From assembly GCA_964425075.1 (NCBI GenBank), contig CAYRKM010000001.1, positions 523,060 through 587,059 of the forward strand: 64,000 nt of DNA. The letters are read 5' to 3'. The DNA comes from an uncultured Gammaproteobacteria bacterium. Its GTDB lineage: Bacteria; Patescibacteriota; Microgenomatia; Levybacterales; GWA1-39-11. The position numbers were made by a program, and so were the translations under genes. Shown here one piece after another: positions 10,203 to 62,239 of the stretch (position 1 is its first letter; the number at the start of each line of letters is the position of its first letter). The notes beneath the pieces are model-generated. The model saw nothing but the letters and a program-made list of their open reading frames with translations, did no database searches and was not told where the DNA came from.

Positions 10203-11360
10203 ATGGACTCAAAATTACAATACGTAAAAAAACTAGAAGAAATTTCGCATATTTCAGCTGAGGAAGCAAAAAGACTTTTGATTTCAGAAATGGAGAATGA
10301 CTCTAAGGCTGAAATTGCAAAAATTATTCGCGATAGTGAAACCGAAGCAAAAGCAATTGCACACAAAAAAGTTCAAGAGATACTAGCTGATGCTATAAAG
10401 CATGGCGCTTTAGATTTTCTCCCAGAATATACTCTCTCAGTTATAAAAATTGAAGATGAGGACATGAAGGGTAGGATTATTGGAAAAGAAGGACGAAATA
10501 TCCGAGCTTTCGAGAATGCTACTGGAGTTGACGTCGACCTTGAAGAGCGGGGAATTATACGGCTTTCAAGCTTTGACCCAGTTAGACGAGAGGTTGCAAG
10601 ACGCGCTTTGGAGCTTTTAATAAGGGATACTCGTATTCAACCTGTAAGGATTGAGGAAGTAGTAGAGCAACAGAAAAAGGAAGTAAATAAAATTCTTTTT
10701 GAAGAAGGAGAAAAGTTAGCTCACTCAGTTGACGCATACAACATTCACCCTGATCTTATTCAGATCCTTGGAAGATTTAAATTCAGAACGTCATTTGGGC
10801 AGAATCTAGTGGTGCATACACTTGAAGAGACAAAAATCGGTATGCAAATTGCGCATGAAATTGGTGCAAATGTTGAAACCGTAAAACTTGGATGTTTATT
10901 CCATGATATTGGTAAAGTTGTTAATGAAAAAGAGGGAAGTCATGTGGATCTTGGAGTGGAGCTTCTTAATAAATATAAAATCCCACGAGAAATTGTTAAT
11001 TGCGTAGCAGAACATCATGAAGATAAACCATTCTCGTCAATTGAGTCAATGATTGTGTCCACAGCGGATGCAATTTCAGGTGCTAGACCTGGTGCAAGGC
11101 ACGAAGACCTTCAAGACTACATGAAGCGACTTCGGGACATGGAAGAAATAGCCAAGAATTTTGATGGGGTTGAAGACGCTTATGCATTTGAAGCAGGACG
11201 AGAGTTAAGAGTAGTAATAAATCCAGGAAAGTTAGATGACGTTGAGGCTACAATTTTAGCAAGAAAAATAAAAGAAGAAGTTGATAGAAAGGTTATAGTT
11301 CCAGGAGTAGTGAGAGTAACAGTAATTCGTGAATTTAGAGTCTCCGAACCAAAAGAGTGA
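10203..11360 (+). CDS. rny: Ribonuclease Y (KH + HD domains), short form without the usual N-terminal TM anchor
   Basis: 385 aa. KH-domain motif GRIIGKEGRNIRAFE. HD-domain motifs LFHDIGK and AEHHED. Overall layout matches RNase Y. Confidence 0.8.
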   Translation: MDSKLQYVKKLEEISHISAEEAKRLLISEMENDSKAEIAKIIRDSETEAKAIAHKKVQEILADAIKHGALDFLPEYTLSVIKIEDEDMKGRIIGKEGRNIRAFENATGVDVDLEERGIIRLSSFDPVRREVARRALELLIRDTRIQPVRIEEVVEQQKKEVNKILFEEGEKLAHSVDAYNIHPDLIQILGRFKFRTSFGQNLVVHTLEETKIGMQIAHEIGANVETVKLGCLFHDIGKVVNEKEGSHVDLGVELLNKYKIPREIVNCVAEHHEDKPFSSIESMIVSTADAISGARPGARHEDLQDYMKRLRDMEEIAKNFDGVEDAYAFEAGRELRVVINPGKLDDVEATILARKIKEEVDRKVIVPGVVRVTVIREFRVSEPKE

Positions 11361-11398
11361 ATTTAGTTCTCTAAATTAATCAATCCCAAACAGATATA

Positions 11399-11427
11399 TT
11401 GACAAAGGTATGTAGAGTTTGTATTGT
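11399..11427 (+). promoter_or_regulatory. Sigma70-type promoter for hup: TTGACA-17 nt-TATTGT
   Basis: Consensus -35 at 11399-11404, 17-nt spacer, -10 TATTGT at 11422-11427. A GGGGGTGA Shine-Dalgarno lies 7 nt before the ATG. Confidence 0.5.
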
Positions 11428-11463
11428 TAAATCAAGCAAAGTTTCGAAAGGGGGTGATTTTTA

Positions 11464-11742
11464 ATGTCAGTAACAAAAAAAGAATTAATAGAATTAGTAG
11501 CAAAAAAAGGTAATCTTACCAATAAGGCTGCGAAGGAATCAGTGAAGGTTTTCCTAAATGGCATTAGAGATAGCCTTAAGAGAGGCGAAAAGGTTGTAAT
11601 TACAGGATTTGGTACATTTTCAGTAAGAAGTCGAAAGTCTAGAAAAGGAAGAAATCCTAAGACTGGTGAGGCTATAATAATCAGCGCAAGAAAAGCACCT
11701 GGATTTACACCTGGAAAGAGCCTCAAAAAAGCTATTAAGTGA
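11464..11742 (+). CDS. hup: DNA-binding protein HU
   Basis: 92 aa. MSVTKKELIELVAKK...GFGTFSVRSRKSRKGRNPKTGEAI matches the HU/IHF fold signature. Confidence 0.9.
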   Translation: MSVTKKELIELVAKKGNLTNKAAKESVKVFLNGIRDSLKRGEKVVITGFGTFSVRSRKSRKGRNPKTGEAIIISARKAPGFTPGKSLKKAIK

Positions 11743-12771: not shown

Positions 12772-13154
12772 GACCTTAGGAAGAAGGGTCGTCGCCTCGG
12801 CCGTAGTTGGACGGGGAGGAAAGTCCAGACAGGTTTAATGCCAGGGATGGAACGTAAGTTCCGGCTAGAATAAACAAAGCTTTTTTAAGTTTTGTTTAAA
12901 ATAGCTAGTGTCTAATTCCTTCACCCACATATGGGAATTAGAACAGGTACAGAATTAACTGCACCTGAGAGCAACAGAGACGAGTGGGAGTGAAACGGGC
13001 AATCCTACCTGCTGCAACCTCCGATCGATATGGGAGCATTACCCGTGCCTCATAGGCACAGTATCGAAGTTTGAGGGCATCAGATAGATGACGATCAAAC
13101 ACCTGATAGTTTTCAGTGTTCAACAGAATCTGGCTCACTCTCTTCCTAGGGTCT
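12772..13154 (+). ncRNA. rnpB: RNase P RNA (bacterial type), with an AT-rich inserted helix
   Basis: GGAAAGTCC (12818-12826) corresponds to the universally conserved GGAAAGUCCGG element. GAGAGCAACAGAGACGAG resembles E. coli GUGCAACAGAGAGCAAAC. The 3' ACAGAATCTGGCTCA matches conserved ACAGAACCCGGCUUA. 5' TAGGAAGAAGGG pairs with 3' CTCTCTTCCTAGGG (P1 helix), followed by a T-run. Confidence 0.7.
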
Positions 13155-36376: not shown

Positions 36377-36867
36377 CGTGTTGCAACTGCGGTATGAACA
36401 TGTATTTGCTCAGGTTGTCCTCTTAATTTTGCTTGGCTATCAAGATTAAAGTCTATTACTATACTGTGATTTCCTCCAGTATTTCCTATGCGAAGAAATG
36501 AAATATTCAAAAAAGCACTTCCAGTACTATTGAGCTGATGTGTACCGCTATTATTTGATAGTTCTAAATTTCCTGAATTAAGTGAATAGGTGTAAGTTTC
36601 TCCCCCAATATCAAGTTGTAGGCTTGAGGTTTGCATTCCAGTCTCAGATGGTACGACAATATCATCTGCTCTATGGATATCATATGTCAATCTCTCAACA
36701 ATAAATCGTGAATCTTGTTGAATTATTGATGTTGTATCTGATTCGACTTGAACATCAAGAACAGACGTAAAAATGCTTGTGGTTACATACATAAAAATGC
36801 TAAATACGGCAACGTAAACGATAAGTTCCATAAGCGCGAACCCTCTTTTGTTAGAATAATTTTTCAT
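36373..36867 (-). CDS. Minor pilin with prepilin-type N-terminal domain
   Basis: 164 aa. KRGFALMELIVYVAVFSIFMYV prepilin motif. Confidence 0.6.
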   Translation of the reverse strand: MKNYSNKRGFALMELIVYVAVFSIFMYVTTSIFTSVLDVQVESDTTSIIQQDSRFIVERLTYDIHRADDIVVPSETGMQTSSLQLDIGGETYTYSLNSGNLELSNNSGTHQLNSTGSAFLNISFLRIGNTGGNHSIVIDFNLDSQAKLRGQPEQIHVHTAVATR

Positions 36868-38840
36868 AGTGAATAATTGACGGTTACATCATGTAATATT
36901 GGTGAAATCAAAATATCTGATGTTGAAAAAATTGCTTTATATTTAAAACATTGGCTTGGATTTATGTAATTTCCATTTGAAATATAGGGAATTATTCCTG
37001 AAATTGACGTTTCGTTACCTGTAAAGTAGGTGCCAGACGTTCCATCTGGACCAACAAATGAATAATTTGCGCCACTACAGCTACCACTAACTGCATTTGC
37101 TACTGCGACTTGCATTTGGATATTGGTATCGTCAGGTTTGGTTACTGTTGCGCTAAATCTATTGAACGCACTTGAAAGAAGGGCATCATATGGGGCAGAG
37201 GTGAAGGTTCCATTTACTGAAAATTGCCCCCCCGGTCCACCTTCAATGATTTTTAACTCTGCAGTTGCGTCTCCTGTAACAATATAAGAATAGGCATCTC
37301 CATCTGCCTCAAGGACAGAGGACACACCTTTTACTCCCGTATCTATTTGAAGGCCCCCACACCTTGATGGACTTGCCTCATTTGAAATATCAATAACCTG
37401 ATATTCTTCTCCACCAGTTCCTACTAGAATTGCTTTATTTCCGGGAACAACGGAAATTCCCAATGGACTCATTCCATTTGCTTCATAGCTCCCAACAATC
37501 GGTCTGTTTCCGGTTTTTGTAGAAGTATTTATAATAAAGAATTCTCTTTTTGACGCATCAGCACTAGTTGCAAGATAGGCACGAGTTCCAGTTGAATTCA
37601 CATGAACTTCCTTTCCTCCAGCACTATTTACATCGGCAGTTCCCACCTCTCTTAAGTCATCGGGATTACTTACATCAACTATTGAAAGTTCCTTAAAAGA
37701 ATTTCCATCAACAGCAATGTACGCATAATTTCCGCTCACCCACATTTTTTTTGCGGTACCAAAAATTGTGATAAGTAAGCTATCTCTTATTGGTCGACTT
37801 CCCGTTTTACTTGAAAGGTCAAAGGCATACAGAACATTTCCGGTAGTAAGATACCCAACGTTACCAACTACAAATATTCCATTTCCTGACTGGTTAAAAG
37901 GAGGGTTCATATATCCCGCTTCAGAATATGGATTGGTTGATAAATCAACAATAACTCCTTCTTTAGAGTTAGTATCAGTCGCAAGATAAGCATAATTTGC
38001 ATCTCCAAATACAGCATTTGTTTTATAGCTGTTAAATGTTCCACTTACAGTTGCTGCTGGCGGATCTGTATTGGCAACAGTGACATTTGCAAAAGAAACA
38101 CCAGAAGCATTATCTCCAGTTCCTGCAAAAACCCTACCTTCAATAGCGCTCACTGCATTAGCAACACCGCTTTTTGGAAGGTCAAGTGCTGTAATAGATA
38201 GATTTGGGTCACACCAATTTCCTCCTCCTCCAGCGCCAAGAATAATTTCACCATCATCAACAATACTGCTTCCATTTGTTGATGTGACAACCGTTGAAGA
38301 TTGTGTACCAGCATTAAAATGGGTTTGGGTAGTGTGTTCGTATGCAGCATTTTCGTGTCTAGTAATATAACTGGTGCTAGTAACCGATGAAGGATATGGA
38401 TTTTCCCAAGAAAGTGTGACAAGAACCTTTTTTGTAGAAGGGTCCAATATTTCTGATCCTCCAGGATTTTGAACAATAGTACCGCTAGAATTTCTGTATA
38501 CATTTTGAATGTCAATTGTTCGCGTATACTGGCTATCAAGTAGTTCGCTTCCAGAAGTAAGTGCCCAAGTATTTCCAGATATTGTAGGGTGATAAGTTCC
38601 ATTTGTTGAAACATTGCTCCAATTTTCCTTGATTACTCTTATTGCCTCTTCCCCCTCTCGAAGGTAACCAACTGCTTTTAAGCGTTGAACTGCTTGGTCA
38701 CGTCCATCGCGGGATGCTACGAGACTTGTTAGGAGTGGAGGAAGAATAACAGCCGCAAGTCCAATAGCCAGCAAAAGTTCAACCAAAGACTGGCCGCGCT
38801 GAGATAAGATATTTTTTTTGAATCTATTCAATAGCCCCAT
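36864..38840 (-). CDS. Large (658 aa) prepilin-type protein: pseudopilin N-terminus fused to a big beta-rich, probably repeat/propeller-like, domain; candidate pilus tip adhesin
   Basis: N-terminal RGQSLVELLLAIGLAAVILPPLL prepilin motif. The remainder is Gly/Thr/Ser/Asn-rich with recurrent hydrophobic-x-hydrophobic beta-strand patterns. Confidence 0.5.
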   Translation of the reverse strand: MGLLNRFKKNILSQRGQSLVELLLAIGLAAVILPPLLTSLVASRDGRDQAVQRLKAVGYLREGEEAIRVIKENWSNVSTNGTYHPTISGNTWALTSGSELLDSQYTRTIDIQNVYRNSSGTIVQNPGGSEILDPSTKKVLVTLSWENPYPSSVTSTSYITRHENAAYEHTTQTHFNAGTQSSTVVTSTNGSSIVDDGEIILGAGGGGNWCDPNLSITALDLPKSGVANAVSAIEGRVFAGTGDNASGVSFANVTVANTDPPAATVSGTFNSYKTNAVFGDANYAYLATDTNSKEGVIVDLSTNPYSEAGYMNPPFNQSGNGIFVVGNVGYLTTGNVLYAFDLSSKTGSRPIRDSLLITIFGTAKKMWVSGNYAYIAVDGNSFKELSIVDVSNPDDLREVGTADVNSAGGKEVHVNSTGTRAYLATSADASKREFFIINTSTKTGNRPIVGSYEANGMSPLGISVVPGNKAILVGTGGEEYQVIDISNEASPSRCGGLQIDTGVKGVSSVLEADGDAYSYIVTGDATAELKIIEGGPGGQFSVNGTFTSAPYDALLSSAFNRFSATVTKPDDTNIQMQVAVANAVSGSCSGANYSFVGPDGTSGTYFTGNETSISGIIPYISNGNYINPSQCFKYKAIFSTSDILISPILHDVTVNYSL

Positions 38841-39324
38841 ATGGATTTATTTCAAGAGTTATTGAATCTCCCTCGAAATTATTGATAGTCAAACTATTTT
38901 GTCCATTTATAAAGTTAAGTACTTCACCGCTTCCTCGCGTAAATACCACTTGAGTACTTGGTAAAGTCACATTTGAAAAACTAAAATTTTCAGGCAATTC
39001 AATTTCTGCATTTGCCGGATCATTTGGATTGTAGGAAGATCCTTTGAAAAGGGTATAGCTATTTGTTTCAAAATGTACTCCATATTCTCCAGGGGAAGAA
39101 GTGTTTTGAGCGCTTAAGGACATTGATTTTGTTTGTTGTGATTTTAAATCTGAAACAAGAATTTTATACACACTCTGAACAGTTTTTGTTTGATGAATTT
39201 TTAGTAAATTCATGGAGATTATTCCCAGAAGGGTTGAGGCTATCGCCATTGTAATTACGATTTCCACAAATGTGAAACCACGAGAAGCAAGGGTAATTTC
39301 TTTAAGGGCAGGTAAGTATTTCAT
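38824..39324 (-). CDS. Pseudopilin (GspH/FimT-like) with prepilin N-terminal domain
   Basis: 166 aa. SRGFTFVEIVITMAIASTLLGI prepilin motif. Confidence 0.6.
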   Translation of the reverse strand: MKYLPALKEITLASRGFTFVEIVITMAIASTLLGIISMNLLKIHQTKTVQSVYKILVSDLKSQQTKSMSLSAQNTSSPGEYGVHFETNSYTLFKGSSYNPNDPANAEIELPENFSFSNVTLPSTQVVFTRGSGEVLNFINGQNSLTINNFEGDSITLEINPYGAIE

Positions 39325-40392
39325 TTAACGCGCTCCGACTTGTCCGATTATGCCGTAGATTGGTGCGATTATTGCAAGCATCATTCCCCCCACCAAAATA
39401 CCAACAACAACTAACATGATAGGTTCTAGCATCTGAGTTACTGTTTTTAACGTTTTTGAGACTTGATAGTCTAAAAATTCTGATGCATCTTGAAGTGAGT
39501 GCTCAAGATTTCCACTTTTTTCGCCAGCTTCAATAATCTTTATCATAAGTGGTGGAAATATTTCTTTTCTATCTTTAAGACCTTGAGAAAAAGTTTTCCC
39601 AGAAGTTATTGTTTCTCTTGCATGAGCTATTGCTTCAGCAATTTTCTTTTGTATCACAATTTCCTCCGCAAGTTCTAGAGCAGAAGTAACTGTGATGCCT
39701 GCGTTAAGAAGAAGATATAGACTATGACTAAGCTGTGTTAGGTCAATTTGTTTTGCCAATGTTGAGAAAGGTGGAATACCAGTTACAAAATGAATAAATT
39801 CCCTCTTACGTGTTTTATATAGATATACAATTCCAGCGGCGAATAACAATACACCTAACCAAAATGGTAAAGCATTTTTTAACATAAAATTAGATACACC
39901 AATTAAAATTTGTGTAGGGAGTGGAAGGTCAGCATTAAGTCTTGAGAATACCTCAGAAATTCTTGGTATAACAAACAATAGCATCATTAGAAGAACAGCC
40001 GTAAAAACTATAAATATTAAGATTGGGTAAATTAATGCAGAACGGATTCTATCCCTGAATTCAATTGATTTTTTAATATTTTCTTTTAAATCAACTAACG
40101 CAACGTCCAGTGTGCCTGCTTCCTCAGACGCTTTAATTATATTTACAGTAACCTTGTCAAATATTCTTGGAAATTTTTCCAACGCTGAATTTAATTGCTT
40201 TCCCTGCGAAACATCGGCCATTATGGATTCCAGCATCTTTTTCTGATTCCCTTTTGAATATTCAAGAAGCGAAGAAATAGTTTCAAGAAGAGGAATGCCA
40301 GCAGAAAACATTGTTGCAAGACTACTTATAAATCCGAGTTTCTCATCATCTGAGATTGAAATATTGGATGAATTTGGATTATGTTTGCTCAT
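39325..40392 (-). CDS. pilC: Type IV pilus inner-membrane platform protein PilC (GspF family)
   Basis: 355 aa. GspF/T2SSF domain features and 3 TM helices. Its start ATG overlaps the pilB stop. Confidence 0.85.
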   Translation of the reverse strand: MSKHNPNSSNISISDDEKLGFISSLATMFSAGIPLLETISSLLEYSKGNQKKMLESIMADVSQGKQLNSALEKFPRIFDKVTVNIIKASEEAGTLDVALVDLKENIKKSIEFRDRIRSALIYPILIFIVFTAVLLMMLLFVIPRISEVFSRLNADLPLPTQILIGVSNFMLKNALPFWLGVLLFAAGIVYLYKTRKREFIHFVTGIPPFSTLAKQIDLTQLSHSLYLLLNAGITVTSALELAEEIVIQKKIAEAIAHARETITSGKTFSQGLKDRKEIFPPLMIKIIEAGEKSGNLEHSLQDASEFLDYQVSKTLKTVTQMLEPIMLVVVGILVGGMMLAIIAPIYGIIGQVGAR

Positions 40393-42089
40393 TAGATTTC
40401 AACTTTCGTAACACGAAGAACCTCTTCGATAGTCGTCATTCCGTTTTTAGCTTTTTCAAGTCCATCATCAAGCATTGTTGTCATTCCCTCACTGATGGCT
40501 GCCTGTGCGATAACATCAGAGTCATTCTTCTTCGTAATAAGGTCTCTTATGGTTTTTGTAACCTCAAGAACTTCAAAAATACCAACTCTTCCGGTGTAAC
40601 CAGTTGCATGGCAGATTTTGCATCCATTTCCCTTAAAAGTATTTATCTCAGTAACATTTCCAAAATGTTTTTGAAGCATAGCGGTTGGAAGGTTTTTGCT
40701 CAAATCGCTCATTAGAAACTTTAGGGGTACTTTGCATGAATCACAAATCCTTCTTACAAGTCTTTGTGCAACTATTACATTAACTGTTGAGGCAACAAGG
40801 AATGGTTCAATTTCCATATCAATAAAACGAGGAAGTGCTGTAGCTGCATCATTTGTGTGAAGGGTTGAGAGAACTAAATGACCAGTAAGCGCAGCATTAA
40901 CTGCAATTTCTGCGGTTTCTGTATCTCTAATTTCTCCAACGAAGACAATATTTGGATCTTGTCTTAGAATAGAACGAAGACCACTCGCAAAGGTTAATTT
41001 TGTTTTTACATTTACCTGAATTTGGTTCACGCCCTTAATTCGATACTCAACTGGATCTTCGATTGTTGTAATGTTTTTCTCTCTGGTGTTAAGAATTTTC
41101 AAAATGGCATAAATTGACGTGGTTTTTCCAGAACCTGTAGGACCCGTTGAAAGTATCATTCCATAACTTTTATTAAAAGCGGTTGTTACTTTTTTCAGAT
41201 CAACTTCATTCATCCCAAGGTCAAGAAGCGAAAACTTTCTAAAATGGGAAGCGAGAAGTCTTAGGACTGCCTTTTCTCCTTCAACAATGGGGACGATAGA
41301 CACACGAATATCAAGATCTTCTTCTTCATATTTCATTCTCATCTTTCCGTCTTGTGGTGCATAATGCTCGTCAGTTCTAAGACTTGAAAGCACTTTTATT
41401 CTATTGATGACTTCAGAATGATAATGTTTGGGTAAAAATAAAATATCATGAAGAATTCCATCAAGCCTAAATCTTACAAGAGAGCGGTTTTCCTCAGGCT
41501 CTATGTGAACATCCGAAGCTTTATCGTGGTATGCATATTCAATAATTGCGTCAACTATTTTTGCAACCGGGGTTTCTTTAAGAAATTTATTTGTTTTAAC
41601 CTCACCTGTTTCATTTACTAGTCCGCTTAATGCAGTTTGTGGATCTTTTTTGTAAACCTGAAGTGCGTTATCAATATCTCTTTCAGTTGCGTAATATTTA
41701 TAAATTTTCTCTCCTGTTTTTTTGGAGATGAATTCGGGAATATCCGTTATGTTAGGATCAGACATCGCAAGCTTTACCCCATCCTGATCCCTCGCAAAAG
41801 CGATAATTTTGTGTGTCCTTGCTACTTTTTCAGGCACTAGTCGGAATACTGTTTCGGGAATATTAATCTTTGAAAGCGCAATAAATGGAAATTTATAATA
41901 GTCAGCAAGCAAAACTCCAATCACCTCATCAGACACTAAATTCTTCTCTATAACAGAATCAAGAAGTGTCGAGTCGGAATTTTTTGCATAAACTTCAACA
42001 GAAGCCAAGTCTTGCTGAGAAATTACATTGGCAGACAAAAGAATTTTTTTAAGATCGCTGTCTGGAATAGTCATTACTTCATCATACAC
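40392..42089 (-). CDS. pilB: Type IV pilus assembly ATPase PilB (GspE family)
   Basis: Walker A LSTGPTGSGKTTS, Asp and His boxes, and C-terminal CxxC zinc motif (CDSC...CKIC). The ORF-track start is GTG. An alternative ATG lies at 42072-42074. Confidence 0.9.
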   Translation of the reverse strand: MYDEVMTIPDSDLKKILLSANVISQQDLASVEVYAKNSDSTLLDSVIEKNLVSDEVIGVLLADYYKFPFIALSKINIPETVFRLVPEKVARTHKIIAFARDQDGVKLAMSDPNITDIPEFISKKTGEKIYKYYATERDIDNALQVYKKDPQTALSGLVNETGEVKTNKFLKETPVAKIVDAIIEYAYHDKASDVHIEPEENRSLVRFRLDGILHDILFLPKHYHSEVINRIKVLSSLRTDEHYAPQDGKMRMKYEEEDLDIRVSIVPIVEGEKAVLRLLASHFRKFSLLDLGMNEVDLKKVTTAFNKSYGMILSTGPTGSGKTTSIYAILKILNTREKNITTIEDPVEYRIKGVNQIQVNVKTKLTFASGLRSILRQDPNIVFVGEIRDTETAEIAVNAALTGHLVLSTLHTNDAATALPRFIDMEIEPFLVASTVNVIVAQRLVRRICDSCKVPLKFLMSDLSKNLPTAMLQKHFGNVTEINTFKGNGCKICHATGYTGRVGIFEVLEVTKTIRDLITKKNDSDVIAQAAISEGMTTMLDDGLEKAKNGMTTIEEVLRVTKVEI

Positions 42090-56046: not shown

Positions 56047-56913
56047 ATGCACATACAAACAGTCGCAAAATATATAAGACGCTCACCTTACCAGTCAATT
56101 GCTGCATCGTTAATAATGTCTTTGACCTTTTTAACAATTTCTGTTTTTTCAATTTTGACAATTATTTCTATTCGTGTAATTGATTATTTTGAATCACGTC
56201 CTCAGCTTTCTGTTTTTTTTGCAGATACTGCTGAAAGGAGCGATATCGAAGCTGTACGTCAACAACTTGAGGCAACTGGAAAAACTGAGAGTATCAAATT
56301 TGTGTCAAAAGAAGAGGCGTTAGCAATTTACAAAGAGCAAAACAAAGAAGACCCCTTGCTTTTGGATTTGGTAACTGCTGATATATTACCAGCCTCACTT
56401 GATGTACAAGCAAAAGACGCAACAGAACTATCGACTCTTGCGCAAATTGCTCGTGGCTCACAGATGGTTGATGAAGTAGTTTTTCAGAAAGACATAGTTG
56501 ATACGTTGGTTAGATTTACGAATGGACTGCGACAAATTGGAATAGTGATAATTGGTGTCTTAGTTCTTGTTTCGGTTTTTGTGATACTTACAATTATTGG
56601 TATTAAAATTACGGTAAGACGTGAAGAAATTGAAATAATGAAGCTAATTGGTGCGTCAAATTGGTTTATCAGGACGCCATTTGTCCTTGAGGGAATATTT
56701 TATGGGGCCATTGGTGCAATTATTGGCTGGAGTGTTACGTATGGAGTTTTGCATTTCTATGCAACTCCAAAGATAAATTCATTTTTTGGCAATGTGCCTG
56801 TTCTGCCAATAGAGCCTATTCTTATGCTTGAAGTAGCAGGAGTTCTTTTCCTATCTGCAATTCTTCTGGGTGCATTTTCAAGTTTCCTGGCAGTTCTTCG
56901 TTACCTAAAGTAA
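56047..56913 (+). CDS. ftsX: Cell-division permease FtsX
   Basis: 288 aa. N-terminal TM, large extracytoplasmic domain, three C-terminal TM helices. Follows ftsE. Confidence 0.85.
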   Translation: MHIQTVAKYIRRSPYQSIAASLIMSLTFLTISVFSILTIISIRVIDYFESRPQLSVFFADTAERSDIEAVRQQLEATGKTESIKFVSKEEALAIYKEQNKEDPLLLDLVTADILPASLDVQAKDATELSTLAQIARGSQMVDEVVFQKDIVDTLVRFTNGLRQIGIVIIGVLVLVSVFVILTIIGIKITVRREEIEIMKLIGASNWFIRTPFVLEGIFYGAIGAIIGWSVTYGVLHFYATPKINSFFGNVPVLPIEPILMLEVAGVLFLSAILLGAFSSFLAVLRYLK

Positions 56914-56950
56914 TTGGAAAGTATGAATTATTGGCTTTATCCATAGTATT

Positions 56951-58180
56951 ATGAATATCATGCGTCACGCTTTATTAAAAGTATTTGTGATTGTAGTTTT
57001 GTGCTTTGTTTTTGCTTTGGGTAATTCTGCTTTTAGCCAAACCGCAACTCCTACTCCTACCCCAACTCCATCAACGGAAGCAAAAGAGAACGAGCTTGAA
57101 GGAAAGATAAAAGAATTGCAAGGTAAAATCAACGAACTTCAGGGTGAGGCAAAATCATTATCATCGCAAATAAAAATAGTTGATAGTCAGGTTTCACTTA
57201 CTGAACTTAAAATTGAAGCAGCACAAGAGAAAATAAAGAATATAAAAGAAGATATTTCCATAACGAAAGATAAGATTTCTGGACTAGAAGTTGATATAGA
57301 TAAAACTACACAGGCTTTGATGGGTAGGATTTCTGCAGTATATGAGGTGGGAAGTGTTGATCCTTGGCAAGTACTTTTAACTGCTAATAATTTAGACAAT
57401 TTTTTTACGCGCTTAAAATATCTAAAAATAGTCCAGCTTTATGATAAGAAAAATGTATTTGCAGCAGAGCAGGCAAAGGTAAATTACGAAAACCAGCAGA
57501 ATATATTGGTTGAAAAACAGCAAGAAGAGGAAGCTCTCAATGATGAGCTGGAAGCCTTTAATTCACAGCTTGAGAAGGAAAAACAAGAAAAACAAAAGCT
57601 CCTTGATGTTACAAAAAATTCAGAAAAAGAATACCAGAGACAGCTTGCCGCAGCCCTACGAGAGTTACAACAAATTCAAAAAGCGGCAATTGTTTTGGCT
57701 GCAACTGAACCAAAAGATGTGACTCGGGGAGAGCCAATTGGGCTAATGGGAAGTACTGGATTTTCAAGTGGCCCTCATTTGCATTTTGGGCTTTATAATA
57801 TCTCCTCTCTTTCTTCCTACAATTATTATTCAAATCACGAAAATCCTCTCAATGCCTTAGAGCCACAGTCTGTGAATTGGATATCGGGGTGTAGTGGTGA
57901 TCCTTCTGGTCAGACCACAAGTGGAAGCGGAGGTTTTGCGTGGCCAATGTCGACAAGCAGTCTGAGGATAACCCAGAATTATGGACTTACATGTTACGCA
58001 TGGATGTATAAGGGTAACCCCCATCCAGCATTGGATATTGTAAACAATTCAAATATTGTAGTCACCGCAGCGGAAGCAGGTCATGCTTATTTTTGTAAAA
58101 ATTGTACGGGCGACGGGGCAAATGGAGTATTCATTTTTCACTCAAATGGTAAGATGACATTGTATTGGCATTTGCAGTAA
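56951..58180 (+). CDS. Secreted coiled-coil M23 (LytM-type) metallopeptidase, EnvC/PcsB-like partner of FtsEX; the M23 domain segments appear in permuted order
   Basis: 409 aa. Signal peptide, TATPTPTPTPS linker, long coiled-coil, GEPIGLMGSTGFSSGPHLHFGLY (M23 C-terminal H-x-H segment). Then FAWPM...NPHPALDIV (HxxxD) ...GDGANGVFIFHSNGKMTLYWHLQ (M23 N-terminal half) at the very C-terminus. Confidence 0.8.
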   Translation: MNIMRHALLKVFVIVVLCFVFALGNSAFSQTATPTPTPTPSTEAKENELEGKIKELQGKINELQGEAKSLSSQIKIVDSQVSLTELKIEAAQEKIKNIKEDISITKDKISGLEVDIDKTTQALMGRISAVYEVGSVDPWQVLLTANNLDNFFTRLKYLKIVQLYDKKNVFAAEQAKVNYENQQNILVEKQQEEEALNDELEAFNSQLEKEKQEKQKLLDVTKNSEKEYQRQLAAALRELQQIQKAAIVLAATEPKDVTRGEPIGLMGSTGFSSGPHLHFGLYNISSLSSYNYYSNHENPLNALEPQSVNWISGCSGDPSGQTTSGSGGFAWPMSTSSLRITQNYGLTCYAWMYKGNPHPALDIVNNSNIVVTAAEAGHAYFCKNCTGDGANGVFIFHSNGKMTLYWHLQ

Positions 58181-58466
58181 AAAATTCCCCAATAATATCT
58201 CATAGTTTGATATCTCTTTCGTATTTTAGTATAATTCCACTTTGCAATTAGAATAAATTCAAGCACAAATGCTGCTTGGTGGAGTTCTTATTGCATCATG
58301 ATGTACCGTATGGTACGTCAGCACTTTGAAATATTGCGGAGATTCATGAAAAAAAACACAGTAGGTGCCGCTTTGAATATTAAACTTAGTATTTGAAGTG
58401 GCATCTATTGTAGGGTGAGTTGGGGCAGACGTCTCGACCACCTTGATTTCCTGGGAGGAAAAGCAC

Positions 58467-58790
58467 ATGTCAGCATCAAATAGGGAGCCATCGATTCGGT
58501 CGTTCCGCGACCTGCTGGTTTCGAGCTGGACAGAGGACAAGTTCGCGTTCGTGATCTACGTGATCTTCTTCTTGGGTCCCGTGGTCACCTTCGCCGGGTC
58601 TCTGGCCTGGTCATGGGTCGGGTATGTGGCGATCCTATGGCTACTAGGTGTAGTCTGGATTTGTGCCACTGCAGTTTACATAGCGCTCGGAGATAACGAG
58701 GAACAAGTCAACCGCAAGTCAGGGGTAAGTTGGTTGCAGGTCGGGTTTGTTGCGATCATCCTGATCGCGATGCTCTACGCCATCAAGTAG
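58467..58790 (+). CDS. Island ORF 1: small 3-TM membrane protein
   Basis: The ORF-track start at 58443 is TTG. ATG at 58467 is preceded by GGGAGGA. Three hydrophobic helices. GC-rich codon usage. Confidence 0.4.
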   Translation: MSASNREPSIRSFRDLLVSSWTEDKFAFVIYVIFFLGPVVTFAGSLAWSWVGYVAILWLLGVVWICATAVYIALGDNEEQVNRKSGVSWLQVGFVAIILIAMLYAIK

Positions 58791-58881
58791 AGTTCCGGGC
58801 AACCGGAACTTGCCAATCAACCCAGTTCGTGGGTCAAGTCTGACTTGACTCACCATTCGCCGAAAGTCAGAAGGGAGCGCC

Positions 58882-59286
58882 ATGTCTGCGCTTGTTGGTT
58901 TCATTCTTCCCTTGTGGGTCGTGCTGAGCATGCTCGGCACGACGCTCGGACTTACACCCGAGCAGACACAGGACAAGAACGTACACATCTCATCTGCCGA
59001 GGGGAAGCCTTACACAGGTTTTTCCTGCGACTGGGAGCTCTTCCCTGACGGCGGCGCGGGCTGGTTTGACGACCAGTGCGGCGGATTGCCGCCTCGGACC
59101 GTCGTGATCTACTGGCGCAACGTTGACCCGGCCGTCTACGGGGATGACTACATCCGCTACGTGCTTCGCCACGAGGTGGAGCACCTGCTTCGCGGACGCG
59201 ACGGTCCATCTGGGGACCTCAACAACGAAACTGCGGCGAAAGCTGCAGGCTGCGCTGCATCACCAGGCTGGTGGTGCGATTGGTGA
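58882..59286 (+). CDS. Island ORF 2: small secreted/anchored protein with an HExxH motif (putative minimal zinc-metallopeptidase-like)
   Basis: 134 aa. N-terminal hydrophobic segment LVGFILPLWVVLSMLGTTLG. YIRYVLRHEVEHLLRG contains H-E-x-x-H. Five Cys. Preceded by a GAAGGGAG SD and a 17-bp palindrome GTCAAGTCTGACTTGAC. Confidence 0.45.
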   Translation: MSALVGFILPLWVVLSMLGTTLGLTPEQTQDKNVHISSAEGKPYTGFSCDWELFPDGGAGWFDDQCGGLPPRTVVIYWRNVDPAVYGDDYIRYVLRHEVEHLLRGRDGPSGDLNNETAAKAAGCAASPGWWCDW

Positions 59287-59353
59287 ACAAACAAGCCAGT
59301 GAGTTGGGGTAGGCGCCCCGATCACCATTCAGCTAGGACTAAGGAGGAACGAG

Positions 59354-59590
59354 ATGGTCTTAACCGAAATGGGTGGAGGCTTTGATGAAAGGCCAAGGAC
59401 GGAGCATGACTCTGATGACGGCGCATCAAGCGACGAGCAGATTCGCGGAGTGGTGATCTACTCCCGAAGCAAGAGGACGTTCATCTTTCGGTCGTCAGGC
59501 CAGCCTGACATCGAAGGACGACGCGGCATCTGGTTCAATGATGATGGTGTGGGGAGGTTCCCCAACGACTTCCCGACCCGTCGATGGTAG
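59354..59590 (+). CDS. Island ORF 3: small hypothetical protein (78 aa)
   Basis: Perfect AAGGAGG SD 6 nt upstream. Acidic and Gly-rich. No homology recognised. Confidence 0.35.
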   Translation: MVLTEMGGGFDERPRTEHDSDDGASSDEQIRGVVIYSRSKRTFIFRSSGQPDIEGRRGIWFNDDGVGRFPNDFPTRRW

Positions 59591-59629
59591 ACTGATCTCC
59601 GCTCCCCGCTCGCGCGGGGCAAAGTGCAT

Positions 59630-59674
59630 GGGGCCTCCTACGCGTTACAACGCTACGGAGGCCCTCGTGCTTTT
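59630..59674 (+). terminator. GC-rich stem-loop (GGGCCTCC...GGAGGCCC) followed by a T-run at the right edge of the island
   Basis: 8-bp perfect stem (59631-59638 / 59657-59664) with a nested CGCGTT/AACGC sub-stem, then TCGTGCTTTT. Confidence 0.4.
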
Positions 59675-59735
59675 AATGACGATATAGTTTGACTTCTTGA
59701 AAATCTCCAGTATCTTTAGTTTAATTATCTAACTT

Positions 59736-59981
59736 ATGACATTGACTAAATCGGACCTTGTCGAAATCACGAAGATAGTAGCTCCTTTAGCTCAAGACAT
59801 ACAGGATGTTAAGAAAGATGTCCAAAATGTAAAAAAAGATGTTTTGGATATAAAAAAAAGGGTTAGGAAGATCGAAAAAAATGTAGATTTGTTGGCTCGT
59901 GTTTCCGATGCAACTGATGTACGGCTTGAAAAAAGAGTGAAGAGAATTGAAAAACACCTCGATTTACCCGCTGATAACTGA
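59736..59981 (+). CDS. Small coiled-coil protein (81 aa) with DVKKDVQNVKKDVLDIKKRV heptad-like repeats
   Basis: ATG start. Low-GC like the host genome. No homology recognised. Confidence 0.35.
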   Translation: MTLTKSDLVEITKIVAPLAQDIQDVKKDVQNVKKDVLDIKKRVRKIEKNVDLLARVSDATDVRLEKRVKRIEKHLDLPADN

Positions 59982-60058
59982 ACTTCATTTTATAAGTTTA
60001 AATTTAGACTTTTTATATCTTGCAAAACGAACAATGAATATGTTTAAGATTAAGAAAC

Positions 60059-60910
60059 TTGAGAAAAAGTTTTGGATTCATTCTTTTATCTATTCTTTTT
60101 CTAGCCTGGACTGGAAGAGTCTATGCTGCGTCAGTTACCTATCTTGAATCTCCCCAAGACTCAGCGTTTACATCAGTGGACGAACTTACATTTCAAATTA
60201 AACTTAGCATCAACGTTTCAAACAACACAAATTATTATCTCAGGGGAGTTTTTTACAAAAAGGACACTAGTAATTATTGTGGCTTCACGTGGAATGGTAG
60301 CGCTTTTTTTAGTGGACCTTATTCCACAAATGAGGGTTGGAAACAATTTCCAAAAGTAACAATTCAGGAAAATAATTGGGAAGGAGAGATAAGGGTAAAA
60401 ATTGATAATAACGATAATGGTTGTAGTGAAAGTGGAGAGTATGGGTTCAAACTTCAGCGTTTTACTGAAAGTGGTTCTGCGACATTTGATACGCAGGATG
60501 AGAAGCTTTTTACTTTCATAATTCCTACACCTACTCCAACTCTATCCCCCACATCAACACCAACGCCGACTTCAAAACCCACAAAATCACCAACCCCTGT
60601 TAAATCTGGGCCAACTGCAACTCCATCAAAATCACCCACATCAACTTCCACAAAATCACTCACTCCTACCTTTTCATCCAATATTTCCCCTACACCAACT
60701 ACTTCTTCTTTCGGAAAGAAGAGCACGGTTTTAGGTTTGAATAACACTCAAGATGAGATACCCACTCCAACAATTACGATAAAAGAGGACGAGAAAAGTT
60801 CTTCTTCAGGCAAGATTATTGTTGTTGCTGGTGGAGTTCTTCTTGCCTTGTCCAGTGGCGCATTGATGTATAAAAAATACAAAAAAGAAAAAGACGAGGA
60901 GCTTTTTTAA
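60059..60910 (+). CDS. Secreted surface protein: signal peptide, ~130-aa N-domain, long Pro/Thr/Ser-rich linker, C-terminal TM anchor with KKYKKEKDEELF tail; TTG start
   Basis: Signal peptide KSFGFILLSILFLAWTGRVYA-AS. PT-rich PTPTPTLSPTSTPTPTSKPTKSPTPV.... C-terminal IIVVAGGVLLALSSGALMY. Confidence 0.5.
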   Translation: MRKSFGFILLSILFLAWTGRVYAASVTYLESPQDSAFTSVDELTFQIKLSINVSNNTNYYLRGVFYKKDTSNYCGFTWNGSAFFSGPYSTNEGWKQFPKVTIQENNWEGEIRVKIDNNDNGCSESGEYGFKLQRFTESGSATFDTQDEKLFTFIIPTPTPTLSPTSTPTPTSKPTKSPTPVKSGPTATPSKSPTSTSTKSLTPTFSSNISPTPTTSSFGKKSTVLGLNNTQDEIPTPTITIKEDEKSSSSGKIIVVAGGVLLALSSGALMYKKYKKEKDEELF

Positions 60911-60941
60911 TGTATTCGTACTAAAATACATATATAGATAA

Positions 60942-61367
60942 ATGAAAATACATACATTAAGTGAGGAAGAAACAATAAAGGTCGGTGAGGAATTTGGTGG
61001 TGATCTTAAGGGTGGGGATATAGTATTGTTGGCAGGTAATTTGGGGGCAGGTAAAACAACTTTTATAAAGGGAGTTGCAAGGGCTCTTAATGTGCCAACT
61101 CGTGTTATTTCTCCAACTTTTGTTATTTCAAGAACACACAAAGCAGATCACAACGCAATCAAGCAAATGTATCATTTAGATTTGTATCGCTTACAAAGCG
61201 AGAGAGAGGTAAAGGACATTGATATAAAAAGCATGGTTGATAATGAATCAGTTATATTGATAGAGTGGCCGGAACTATCATATTCCTCCCTAACCCCTCC
61301 TTATTACAAAGTAGAAATAGAATATGAGGGAGACGGACGAAAAATAGCAATTCATTATGCCCAGTGA
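60942..61367 (+). CDS. tsaE: tRNA threonylcarbamoyladenosine biosynthesis ATPase TsaE (YjeE)
   Basis: 141 aa. LLAGNLGAGKTTFIKGVARAL and SPTFVI motifs. Confidence 0.85.
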   Translation: MKIHTLSEEETIKVGEEFGGDLKGGDIVLLAGNLGAGKTTFIKGVARALNVPTRVISPTFVISRTHKADHNAIKQMYHLDLYRLQSEREVKDIDIKSMVDNESVILIEWPELSYSSLTPPYYKVEIEYEGDGRKIAIHYAQ

Positions 61368-61944
61368 AGAGTCCGTTAAAATCTTAAAAGAGGGTGGGGT
61401 TGTTATATTCCCGACTGATACTGCTGTAGGAATAGGCTGTAGGATAAATGACGAAAAAGCAATAGAAAGAATTTACGAAATACGTCACAGGCCACCAGAA
61501 AAACCACTATTAATTCTAGTTAGCTCTTTTGAAATGGCGGAAGAATACGCTCTTCCACTTTCTGAAAAAATAAAAAAGATTTTGCATAAATATTGGCCAG
61601 GAGGGGTAACTTTTATTTTGCCTGCTAATTCTCAGAAGGTTTTGCCTATTGTTCGTGCTGGTAAGTCAACTATTGCAATCCGATTTCCTCAACACAAAGA
61701 GATTGTTGAAATAATAAAAAAAGTTGGAGTACCAATTGTTGCACCATCCGCAAATTTTTCTGGTGAGAGAACACCGCTAACAATTGAAGAAGTTGATGAA
61801 AATCTTAAAAAAAAGGTTGACTTTGTACTAACTGGTATGTGTACAATGAAAGGCGTTTCGACAATTGTTGATTTAACAACTAATCCCTATCAAATCGTAA
61901 GAGAAGGTGTCGTAACGATAGATGATGAAGACATTGTTTCTTGA
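61357..61944 (+). CDS. tsaC: L-threonylcarbamoyladenylate synthase (YrdC/Sua5 domain)
   Basis: 195 aa. GGVVIFPTDTAVGIGC, YrdC fold. Overlaps tsaE by 11 nt. Confidence 0.85.
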   Translation: MPSEESVKILKEGGVVIFPTDTAVGIGCRINDEKAIERIYEIRHRPPEKPLLILVSSFEMAEEYALPLSEKIKKILHKYWPGGVTFILPANSQKVLPIVRAGKSTIAIRFPQHKEIVEIIKKVGVPIVAPSANFSGERTPLTIEEVDENLKKKVDFVLTGMCTMKGVSTIVDLTTNPYQIVREGVVTIDDEDIVS

Positions 61945-62239
61945 CACTTCTGACAGTAGCAATATAAATGCAAAACTTGAGATTGATGGGAATGTTTTTG
62001 AGGAGATAAGCACAGCAAAAACCAAACGCCCTGAATCAATTCTTATTTTGGTAGAAAAACTTCTTAAAAAGGCAAACCTAAATTTTTCAGAAATAGATAC
62101 AATAAAAGTAAAAAGAGGCCCCGGTTCTTATACTGGACTTAAAGTAGGAACAAGTATTGCAAATGCTCTTTCGTTTGCATTGCAAAAACAAGTCAACGAC
62201 AAAGACTTAGGTGATTTTGAAGAACCACAATATACTTAA
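61922..62239 (+). CDS. tsaB: Truncated TsaB (YeaZ)-like protein (105 aa, N-terminal half only)
   Basis: LFLDTSDSSNINAKLEIDGNV (TsaB-like N-terminal strand) and GPGSYTGLKVGTSIANALSFAL (TsaB/Kae1 GPGSFTGxRIG motif). Lacks the C-terminal ~120 aa of canonical TsaB. Confidence 0.6.
   Translation: MMKTLFLDTSDSSNINAKLEIDGNVFEEISTAKTKRPESILILVEKLLKKANLNFSEIDTIKVKRGPGSYTGLKVGTSIANALSFALQKQVNDKDLGDFEEPQYT

Follow-up and report, generated by a model that had tools for sequence, protein, structure and literature searches.

As documented by Gios et al. (2025, mSystems, PMC12455944), horizontal gene transfer is frequent in Patescibacteria, and so are genomic islands. The islands of these bacteria (also the candidate phyla radiation, CPR) are deviant in composition, patchily distributed among relatives, have distant homologues and lie between core genes of a streamlined genome. 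In all of these respects they resemble the locus described here, a GC-rich gene cassette found in a 64,000-nucleotide stretch of contig CAYRKM010000001.1 (this whole stretch is referred to as the window, and positions are counted from its first letter). The cassette contains three small open reading frames (ORF1–ORF3) and is situated between a gene for an M23 peptidase and a cluster containing tsaE. It differs from the described islands in that it is tiny (1.26 kb of cargo in a unit of 1.5 kb) and lacks an integrase, a tRNA and any significant repeat at its boundaries; in that it occupies one locus across relatives diverged at the species level and yet remains about 20 GC points above its genome; and in the possession of a conserved structured leader and Shine-Dalgarno (SD) sequences within a host that otherwise lacks them. 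Thus, while the deviant composition, the patchiness together with an empty site, and distant homologues of native composition (for ORF2, but not for ORF1 or ORF3) that mark genomic islands were all observed, mobility signatures were not.

Three other kinds of described systems are also of interest for comparison. Like phage morons, the cassette is a self-contained unit of deviant composition with its own promoter and terminator, and one homologue of ORF2 is found in a phage-like element beside an HNH gene; unlike them, it lies outside of any prophage, with no phage genes within ±5 kb, ORF1–ORF3 gave no PHROG hits, and searches of the phage database, IMG/VR and BFVD were likewise without a match for the unit. 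With integron cassette arrays and clusters of attC sites lacking an integrase (CALINs) it shares small, co-oriented and mostly orphan ORFs, imperfect palindromes between them and a content that varies among relatives. However, the island is without an integrase and its hairpins are 28–35 nt long in comparison to 57–141 nt for attC sites; an attC hypothesis was rejected, as no RYYYAAC or GTTRRRY core sites are present on either strand of the island. Lastly, as in riboswitches, RNA thermometers and SD-sequestering leaders, the unit begins with a long, conserved and strand-specific 5' untranslated region (UTR) of multiple hairpins with covarying helices, the last of which overlaps an SD. In contrast to the known cis-regulatory leaders, this leader, of which there are three examples, matched none of the 4227 families of Rfam 15 (no match at E ≤ 1 in window positions 58100–59800 or in the two contigs, L021 and L022, that carry its homologues). 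The locus is therefore an instance of a known phenomenon, islets of transferred genes being common in Patescibacteria, with two components that are undescribed, the ORF2 protein family and the leader RNA.

The account that we favor, with a modest degree of confidence, is that the unit represents an old, horizontally acquired high-GC operon, which became domesticated at a core-gene locus and is a working unit with ORF2 as its selected product. According to this account, a high-GC bacterium or one of its phage-like elements would have supplied the GC-rich part of a complete transcription unit (window ~58200–59680) as cargo, and this cargo would have entered the spacer between two gene modules, viz. 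ftsEX-M23 and that formed by a coiled-coil (cc) gene, a surface protein gene (p283) and tsaE, in an ancestor of a small, AT-rich clade with small genomes, where it would have been kept since as a working operon. Its transcript would start from a host-type sigma-70 promoter, and the first ~225 nt of it would form a conserved stack of hairpins, which probably gates translation or transcript stability because the last hairpin overlaps the SD of ORF1. The island ORFs would then rely upon SD-dependent initiation for their translation, an unusual feature in a largely SD-less or leaderless host, and a conserved intrinsic terminator would stop the transcript ahead of the native cc gene. The selected core product would be ORF2, consisting of a zincin (HExxH) domain of about 110 residues behind a hydrophobic N-terminal segment; ORF1, a fast-evolving protein with three transmembrane (TM) segments, is its likely membrane partner, whereas ORF3 would be a later, lineage-specific add-on that arrived with a copy of the 28-nt hairpin preceding ORF1.

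These results do not overturn current views, because transfer into these bacteria is already well documented. They indicate, nonetheless, that when the GC content jumps strikingly within a streamlined genome of the symbiont type, neither recent transfer nor an artefact need be the cause, and they point to a cassette that has been kept across speciation under purifying selection, with a putative regulatory RNA of its own and with SD sequences unlike the host's own genes. They also provide three leads, namely a minimal HExxH family of predicted zincin fold which is found in bacteria of high GC content, in AT-rich bacteria and in a phage-like element; a structured leader RNA that is a candidate for a new motif; and a natural test case for foreign-gene expression and the rate of amelioration in Patescibacteria-like genomes.

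Based upon a sliding GC profile and change-point analysis, the GC-rich block extends from 58412 to 59670. The GC content of positions 58420–59680 is 57.5% compared to 36.1% in the remaining window (z = 11.2 against all other 1260-bp intervals), and as no other such interval exceeds 41% GC, the block is unique within the 64 kb. Inside it the local GC content is 53–65%. The GC content at third codon positions (GC3) is 0.63–0.71 for the island ORFs versus 0.29–0.33 for the flanking genes; in each of ORF1, ORF2 and ORF3 it is higher than that at first positions, which in turn exceeds that at second positions, and at the boundaries of the ORFs the GC periodicity changes phase. This pattern matches that of real high-GC coding sequence. 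An earlier reading made from the DNA letters alone (the sequence-only reading) had described an island of ~60% GC with a sharp return to AT-rich DNA, containing three SD-led small ORFs on the plus strand (a 3-TM protein, a small HExxH protein with Cys residues and a 78-aa protein) and a number of GC hairpins, with no integrase or transposase. The island is real, although ~60% was slightly generous; the ORFs are present as claimed; each of the hairpins that it listed has a significantly more stable fold than shuffled sequence; and no integrase, transposase or other mobility gene was found within ±5 kb. Its description of the flanks was partly correct: they are AT-rich and a palindrome is present on the left at 58299–58320 (z −3.0; helix H2 of the leader), but the left 230 bp that it had placed outside the island belong to the same unit.

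Both boundaries of the block were recovered in independent assemblies. One Logan contig from run SRR14271365 (L002) is identical to window positions 56570–58830 and crosses the left junction, while the right junction is crossed by a second contig from this run (L003, window 58914–60915) and by one from SRR14271372 (L001, window 58479–62065), in all cases with 0 mismatches; these contigs come from a different assembler and two runs. The AT/GC junction architecture seen in the window is also present in L021 and L022, which are from unrelated studies. No tRNA or Rfam match was detected in the island region, and nucleotide searches of the phage and plasmid collections with either the island or the leader gave no match. 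Transposon-like ends were ruled out, since the island ends have no terminal inverted repeats and a 9-bp repeat (ATAGTTTGA) at 58202–58210 and in 59684–59735 falls short of significance (163 of 2000 shuffles). Only marginal similarity was seen among the spacers on the left and on the right and that of the empty site described below (contig L018).

The distribution of the unit among relatives is patchy. In three remote relatives that are GTDB-representative metagenome-assembled genomes (MAGs) (L010–L012, M23 identity 49–57%), the genes for ftsX, M23, the Pro/Thr-rich surface protein, tsaE and tsaC follow one another in this order with nothing inserted between them. A closer relative from another study (L018/L019, nucleotide identity 72–76%) shows M23, a 58-bp spacer, a cc gene of 113 aa, the surface protein and tsaE, and it is a clean empty site. 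In contrast, two ORF2 homologues lie in AT-rich DNA of further relatives. The unit is present in L021 (SRR22387838), with a 96-aa 3-TM ORF (ORF1-like) followed by ORF2 (77% amino acid identity), the terminator hairpin, a 101-aa cc gene, the surface protein and tsaE. The 293-aa surface protein of this contig is 73% identical to that of the window over its conserved N-terminal part, and tsaE is 69.5% identical. The unit in L021 is provably at the same locus. In the second contig, L022 (SRR21621035), the promoter and leader are followed by an unrelated GC-rich ORF of 83 aa (ORF83), ORF2 (74% identity) and the terminator hairpin (85% identity), beyond which lies spacer DNA resembling the cc- and p283-promoter regions of the window. 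The leader, the ORF2 5'UTR, the terminator and a collinear spacer between ORF2 and the preceding ORF are common to the window, L021 and L022, and the promoter to the window and L022. The leader, ORF2 5'UTR, terminator and promoter are found in none of the high-GC loci that carry ORF2. Within the 5'UTR, the window, L021 and L022 have a 14-mer (CCATTCGCCGAAAG) in common at 14 of 14 positions, and no high-GC locus contains it.

The promoter of the unit is kept in L022 as TTGCAT-17-TATAAT, whereas the L021 contig starts inside the leader. On the strand of the ORFs, the leader has a minimum free energy of −89.5 kcal/mol (z −8.8, with 0 of 200 shuffles as good) in comparison to −52.6 kcal/mol (z −2.8) on the opposite strand, and it is the strongest outlier (z −6.3) in a GC-corrected folding scan of the whole window. 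Its homologue in L022 shows 72% identity over 238 nt and a z of −7.5, and that in L021 a z of −3.2. When the three sequences were aligned, 84.7% of the cells were paired as opposed to 33–47% with slid partners, and 15 pairs showed double-sided changes, compared to 3–5 with slid partners and 6.7 ± 1.9 after shuffling (0 of 500 shuffles reached 15). The main helix comprises 26 pairs in this alignment, with 87% of its cells paired and three pairs showing compensatory double changes, and it is strand-specific because of its six G.U pairs. The first two hairpins, H1 and H2, differ in sequence between the species, and the final one has a GNRA loop and a 3' arm that overlaps the ORF1 SD. Notable elements of the leader include an invariant block (GCACTTTGAAATWTTGCGGA; GCACTTTGAAATATTGCGGA at 58321–58340), which is absent elsewhere in the window and from the other loci and has no match in IMG/VR. 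In the three available sequences, the leader is conserved, strand-specific, placed between a promoter and a start codon, and altered by compensatory changes, as expected generically of structured cis-regulatory leaders, and it is a candidate for an undescribed structured motif. The search mode that gave no Rfam match for it did recover a divergent RNase P RNA at another position of the window. This RNA, at 12776–13153 (+), scored 60.8 bits, below the gathering score of 100 for RF00010, in a full-length model match with an E value of 5e-18; it had been passed over by a gathering-threshold scan of the window and was found by the GC-corrected folding-energy scan, where it is the strongest plus-strand outlier outside the island unit (z −3.6) and serves as a positive control.

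At the right edge of the cassette, a double hairpin lies within 59591–59690 (−44 kcal/mol, z −4.3), and its terminator hairpin is kept after ORF2 in both L022 and L021. The T-tracts that follow it are clean in L021 and L022 (TTTTGCTT and TTTTTCTTT), whereas the tail in the window (TCGTGCTTTT) is interrupted, because of which a consensus terminator scanner made no call in the window. The GC-rich stem followed by a U-tract is that of an intrinsic terminator.

The translation signals of the island also set it apart from its host. SD sequences, located 4–8 nt before the ATG of each ORF in the window, precede all seven of the ORFs found in the islands of the window, L021 and L022; the host genes are without them. 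As the sequence-only reading had noted, the native genes are SD-poor or leaderless in appearance: 49 of the 53 crudely called ones have no SD-like motif, and the same contrast was seen in a scan that is independent of start-codon calls. In many native genes a TATAAT-like box ends 5–10 nt before the ATG (e.g., starts 32278, 49761, 50786(−), 51184, 52854, and 54527(−)), which suggests that leaderless mRNAs are widespread in the host. A search of the literature for SD-less translation in Patescibacteria found nothing.

The conserved core gene of the cassette, ORF2, keeps every residue that is invariant in its family. These comprise a hydrophobic N-terminus, four Cys and the block R-H-E-x-E-H-L-x-R-G-x-D-G, followed by the conserved D112 and E116. 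The H97-E98-x-x-H101 motif is invariant in 21 sequences and sits in a predicted helix (residues 88–104); the invariant residues D107, D112 and E116 are candidates for the third zinc ligand. An AlphaFold2 model built from the family alignment (mean pLDDT 82.6, pTM 0.78) predicts a zincin fold, consisting of a mixed beta-sheet, a backing helix and an active-site helix, that is closest to the minigluzincins. In this model the N-terminal segment forms a strand (residues 6–10) and a helix (11–18), with a mean pLDDT of 94–95 for residues 11–30. No sequence-level relationship was observed to the minigluzincins (selecase 4qhf, proabylysin 4jiu, and projannalysin 4jix) or to the related SprT/Wss1/Spartan zincins, from all of which ORF2 differs by its hydrophobic N-terminal segment, its four invariant Cys and the invariant RGxDG that immediately follows HExxH. 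The ORF2 sequence had no match in Pfam, NCBIfam, PHROGs or PADLOC and, at E ≤ 10, none in a profile search of PDB; Foldseek against PDB and BFVD gave nothing significant; and neither tblastn against phages nor a search of IMG/VR with the ORF2 profile found a match. Judged from the modelled structure, ORF2 represents an undescribed family of minimal zincin-fold HExxH proteins with a domain of about 110 residues, and it is most probably a zinc metallopeptidase that is either exported or associated with the membrane.

About 20 homologues of ORF2 were found among 5.8 billion proteins, none of them named, and all of the contexts fetched from outside the host clade are uniformly of high GC content (60–69%). 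They include a 46-kb contig (L004, 68.6% GC) of a landfill MAG labelled Dehalococcoidia (SRR27751815), which is the nearest named relative; a 429-kb contig (L007, 64.5% GC); four contigs of 61–67% GC (L020 and L023–L025); and a 10-kb element of 62.8% GC (L008). The last of these is phage-like, because PHROGs and Pfam identify in it genes for a primase/helicase, a RusA-like resolvase and two methylases, and an HNH gene immediately behind the homologue of ORF2. In a literature search by run accession, only the study of the landfill, which covers SRR27751815, was returned. In the high-GC genomes the GC3 of ORF2 (0.66–0.82) matches the local composition, and the foreign, high-GC origin that the sequence-only reading had proposed for the cargo is borne out by comparison of these sequences. 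The high-GC loci have ORF2 alone in common with the window, and a pairing of a membrane protein with ORF2 was not found in them. The closest relative among them shows 78% protein identity, and no flanking DNA or ORF2 5'UTR is shared with the window by any of those sampled; the donor lies outside the sampled loci. Two observations concern the surroundings of these homologues. Some 0.9 kb downstream of the ORF2 homologue in L007, a called "gene" of 115 aa (11336–11683, minus strand) consists of a perfect tandem repeat (VGVVVGVVVGVPVTTT...) and is probably a DNA tandem-repeat array rather than a protein. A similar Gly/Val/Asp-repeat ORF is located near the homologue in L008 (8616–9137, minus strand).

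The other two ORFs of the window are of much narrower distribution. For ORF1, the sole homologue is the 96-aa 3-TM ORF in the collinear position of L021 (E 1e-5, 27% identity), while a word-indexed search of the 5.8 billion proteins returned ORF1 itself only. It matched no family at curated cut-offs, the best in Pfam being T4SS_pilin (E 0.009, 16.5 versus the required 26.6 bits), and searches of Pfam, PHROGs, NCBIfam and PADLOC yielded nothing above threshold for ORF1–ORF3, ORF83 or the ORF1-like protein. ORF3 recovered only itself both in the 5.8 billion proteins and when 1.84 billion representatives were searched exhaustively with HMMER, and its single-sequence AlphaFold2 model (pLDDT 48) is uninformative. 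Paralogy of ORF2 and ORF3, which have a 13-nt repeat and a VVIY motif in common, was considered and rejected (BLASTP E 23). ORF3 is absent from L021 and L022, where the terminator lies directly 3' of ORF2, and it follows that ORF3 and the hairpin copy preceding it are an addition specific to the lineage of the window. The two copies of this hairpin (D1, a 28-nt direct repeat) match at 23 of 28 positions, compared to 21 for the best of 100 shuffles, and their differences preserve pairing. Each intergenic gap of the unit holds a GC-rich hairpin. One hairpin module combines GGGCAACCGGAAC with a CCAAT-like sequence. In the window it is found in the gap from ORF1 to ORF2, whereas in L022 it occurs as GGGTAACCGGAAC after the leader and ahead of the first ORF, and L021 shows a looser resemblance to it at that position; these differing positions show modular rearrangement.

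The age of the cassette can be judged from its divergence. The synonymous divergence (dS) of ORF2 between the AT-flanked copies is 0.95–2.3, in comparison to 1.3–1.8 for tsaE and the surface-protein gene between the same genomes, and the ratio of nonsynonymous to synonymous divergence (dN/dS) of ORF2 among these copies is 0.08–0.2. The presence of the cassette in diverged relatives at a host-like dS indicates that it is old, not recent, and that it has been under purifying selection. Additionally, a single origin of the AT-flanked cassettes is favored by the shared ORF2 UTR, leader and terminator, despite the shape of the ORF2 tree. Two of the origins suggested by the sequence-only reading are not supported by these results. 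A recent acquisition is argued against by the same island with the same flanks in L021 and L022, and a decayed mobile element by ORFs that are intact, the retention of all family-invariant residues in ORF2 and a dN/dS of 0.1–0.2.

A number of observations weigh against an old domesticated operon. The neighbor-joining (NJ) tree of ORF2 is star-like, and in it the window copy groups with the high-GC copies (87% bootstrap) and not with those of L021 and L022; the window protein also shares three exclusive residues with the high-GC copies. The deep nodes of this tree, however, have a support of only 29–43%. The GC3 of ORF2 is 0.66–0.71 in all three AT-flanked copies versus 0.29 for host genes, whereas the values predicted after relaxation are 0.36–0.53 under a two-state model with dS by the method of Nei and Gojobori (NG86), which probably overstates the expected decay, or 0.52–0.65 from a same-site-class estimate. 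The observed values thus reach or exceed the upper bound for old residence, which is a mild puzzle and not decisive. At sites conserved in four high-GC-locus copies, ORF2 of the window shows no excess of GC-to-AT changes (5 versus 4), although this test of private changes is too insensitive to date the insertion. Further, L018 is as distant a relative as L021 (the window, L018 and L021 being roughly equidistant) and is cleanly without the whole unit, which calls for either a precise loss or a later gain. In L022, the gene upstream of the unit (positions 1–171) ends in ...GGTHFVVIKSGSGGNYIMNDPYIPNGHDISF..., unlike the C-terminus of M23, and has no Pfam hit, so that either the hydrolase domain has been swapped or the left neighbor is a different one. 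The leader structure is based upon three sequences and was derived from the same alignment that tests it. Finally, the host is Patescibacteria-like, and its assignment to the phylum is inferred from gene content and genome size (an 835-kb contig of 36% GC).

Several of these points would be accounted for if the locus were a resident slot, in which a host promoter-leader and terminator are retained while hairpin-headed GC-rich ORF cassettes are gained, swapped and refreshed, either from high-GC donors or from AT-rich relatives through recombination in the conserved flanks. We regard such turnover as unlikely overall, although it deserves more weight than the other alternatives. It would explain the unameliorated GC content and the variable content alike, and it is consistent with ORFs that differ by locus (ORF1 and its 27% identical counterpart, ORF83 in L022 only, and ORF3 in the window only), with the same 28-nt hairpin before ORF1 and ORF3, with a leader-to-cargo junction at the same position in all three loci, with a leader of host-like composition next to a cargo that is not, and with the non-monophyly of the AT-flanked ORF2 copies and their GC3. 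Nevertheless, ORF2 is accompanied by the identical 14-nt 5'UTR sequence and the collinear spacer in three of three AT-flanked loci and in no high-GC locus, which indicates a single origin of the ORF2 part; no recombinase is located in the vicinity, nor are there attC-type core sites; the deep nodes of the tree are weakly supported; and no near-identical donor was found among the 5.8 billion proteins. It is a speculative and rather improbable suggestion that the locus is a dedicated expression slot of an ultra-small, largely SD-less clade, made up of a host promoter, a leader RNA of a new structured class and a terminator, in which GC-rich foreign cassettes, each headed by a short hairpin and an SD of its own, are captured, exchanged and kept GC-rich without an adjacent recombinase. 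If true, this would be a new type of integron-like cassette platform, with a leader RNA gating the SD-dependent translation of foreign genes.

It is similarly doubtful that the cassette is a toxin/immunity or bacteriocin-like module, in which ORF2 would be a secreted metallopeptidase toxin and ORF1 and/or ORF3 its immunity or export partners, persisting through addiction or interbacterial competition. The hydrophobic N-terminus, four conserved Cys and predicted HExxH zincin fold of ORF2, the small ORFs adjoining it, its solitary occurrence in varied contexts and in a phage-like element, and its patchy distribution would all suit such a role. However, PADLOC, Pfam and NCBIfam provide no match, no conserved partner stands beside ORF2 in the high-GC genomes, ORF3 is missing from L021 and L022, and the N-terminal segment is modelled with such confidence that it may not be a cleavable signal. 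Less probable still, and largely refuted by the homologous units in L021 (at the same locus) and L022 and by their ORF2 dS, is a recent one-off acquisition in the window lineage from a high-GC donor such as the physical host of an episymbiont, for which the sequence-only reading gave Actinobacteria as an example. The strong compositional contrast with its sharp boundaries, SD-led ORFs within an SD-poor genome, the absent amelioration signal at the sites conserved in four high-GC-locus copies of ORF2, the type IV pilus genes of the host that could serve in DNA uptake, and the lineage-specific ORF3 and D1 hairpin copies are all compatible with it, but the closest high-GC relative is only 78% identical in protein sequence with no shared flanks; for ORF3 alone a recent acquisition may apply. 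Lastly, an assembly or binning chimera joining high-GC DNA to an AT-rich genome, which the sequence-only reading had also raised and to which the abrupt switch in composition and the breaks of Logan contigs within the island (L001 starts at 58479 and L002 ends at 58830) could be ascribed, is refuted for practical purposes by the exact recovery of both junctions with a different assembler and by the recurrence of their architecture in two unrelated studies at about 25% sequence divergence.

The features of the old, domesticated operon that we favor and of its immediate flanks are listed in Table 1.

Table 1. Positions of the features of the GC-rich unit and its flanks in the window
Feature	Position	Strand	Description
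Coiled-coil + M23 peptidase gene	56951..58180	+	Native left flank, after ftsE-ftsX; Pfam Peptidase_M23 E 1.5e-12
Sigma-70-type promoter	58207..58235	+	TTGATA-17-TATAAT, pointing into the unit; 11/12 consensus matches
Structured leader RNA	58242..58466	+	Conserved, AT-rich, about 225 nt, stacked hairpins; based upon folding and 3-locus homology
Leader helices	H1 58243-58295; H2 58299-58320; H4 58358-58411; H5 58412-58444; H6 58447-58461	+	
Invariant leader block GCACTTTGAAATATTGCGGA	58321..58340	+	Identical in L021; 1 mismatch in L022
Main leader helix	58358..58411	+	25-bp stem, six G.U pairs, strand-specific
D1 hairpin, copy 1	58415..58442	+	Exact left edge of GC-rich DNA, upstream of ORF1 SD; −19.5 kcal/mol, z −3.7
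ORF1	58467..58790	+	107 aa, 3 TM segments; SD GGGAGGA
GCAA-tetraloop hairpin	58791..58810	+	Directly after ORF1 stop codon; −15.2 kcal/mol, z −4.3
12+12-nt palindrome	58829..58853	+	Upstream of ORF2; z −2.9
ORF2 5'UTR	58853..58881	+	With SD (CCATTCGCCGAAAG...AGGGAG)
ORF2	58882..59286	+	134 aa, predicted minimal zincin-fold HExxH protein; HEVEH motif, 4 Cys; conserved core gene of the cassette
D1 hairpin, copy 2	59299..59326	+	Upstream of ORF3 SD
ORF3	59354..59590	+	78 aa, perfect AAGGAGG SD; window lineage only
Terminator region	59604..59676	+	Small hairpin 59604-59619, 16-bp hairpin 59631-59664, T-rich tail
Native spacer and promoter of cc gene	59684..59735	+	Contains right copy of ATAGTTTGA
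cc gene	59736..59981	+	Native right flank, 81-aa coiled-coil protein; orthologous to L018 cc113 and L021 cc101

The neighbors of the unit on its left are a prfA-like release-factor gene, ftsE, ftsX and the M23 gene, orthologues of the last being found in L010–L012, L018 and L019; on its right are the cc gene, the anchored surface protein p283, tsaE, tsaC and a gene for a CAP-domain protein. The spacer preceding the cc gene aligns with that of the empty site in L018 and with the right flanks of L021 and L022. Beside the insertion site the cc gene is fast-evolving, with products of 81 aa in the window, 113 aa in L018 (1337–1678) and 101 aa in L021 (1195–1500) that show 31–41% identity between relatives, and it seems to be missing from L022. 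The surface protein (60059–60910, plus strand), which is conserved and secreted, starts with an N-terminal signal and a globular domain, continues with a long Pro/Thr-rich linker and ends in a C-terminal TM anchor with a KKYKKEK tail; it belongs to no Pfam family, and its linker region shows a GC skew of −0.77 at 60500–60700. Its orthologues in L018 (1861–2655), L021 (1580–2461), L010 (2976–3785) and L012 (11177–12103) are always located between the M23 gene and tsaE. The gene content of the host includes, in addition to the divergent RNase P RNA, a class I LysRS and a type IV pilus ATPase. The latter, a type IV pilus/type II secretion ATPase (T2SSE + MshEN, 40392–42074), forms together with neighboring genes in 36864–42074 (minus strand) a possible DNA-uptake or attachment apparatus, which would be of relevance to the entry of foreign DNA. 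A protein with LVIVD repeats is encoded at 36864–38840 (minus strand).

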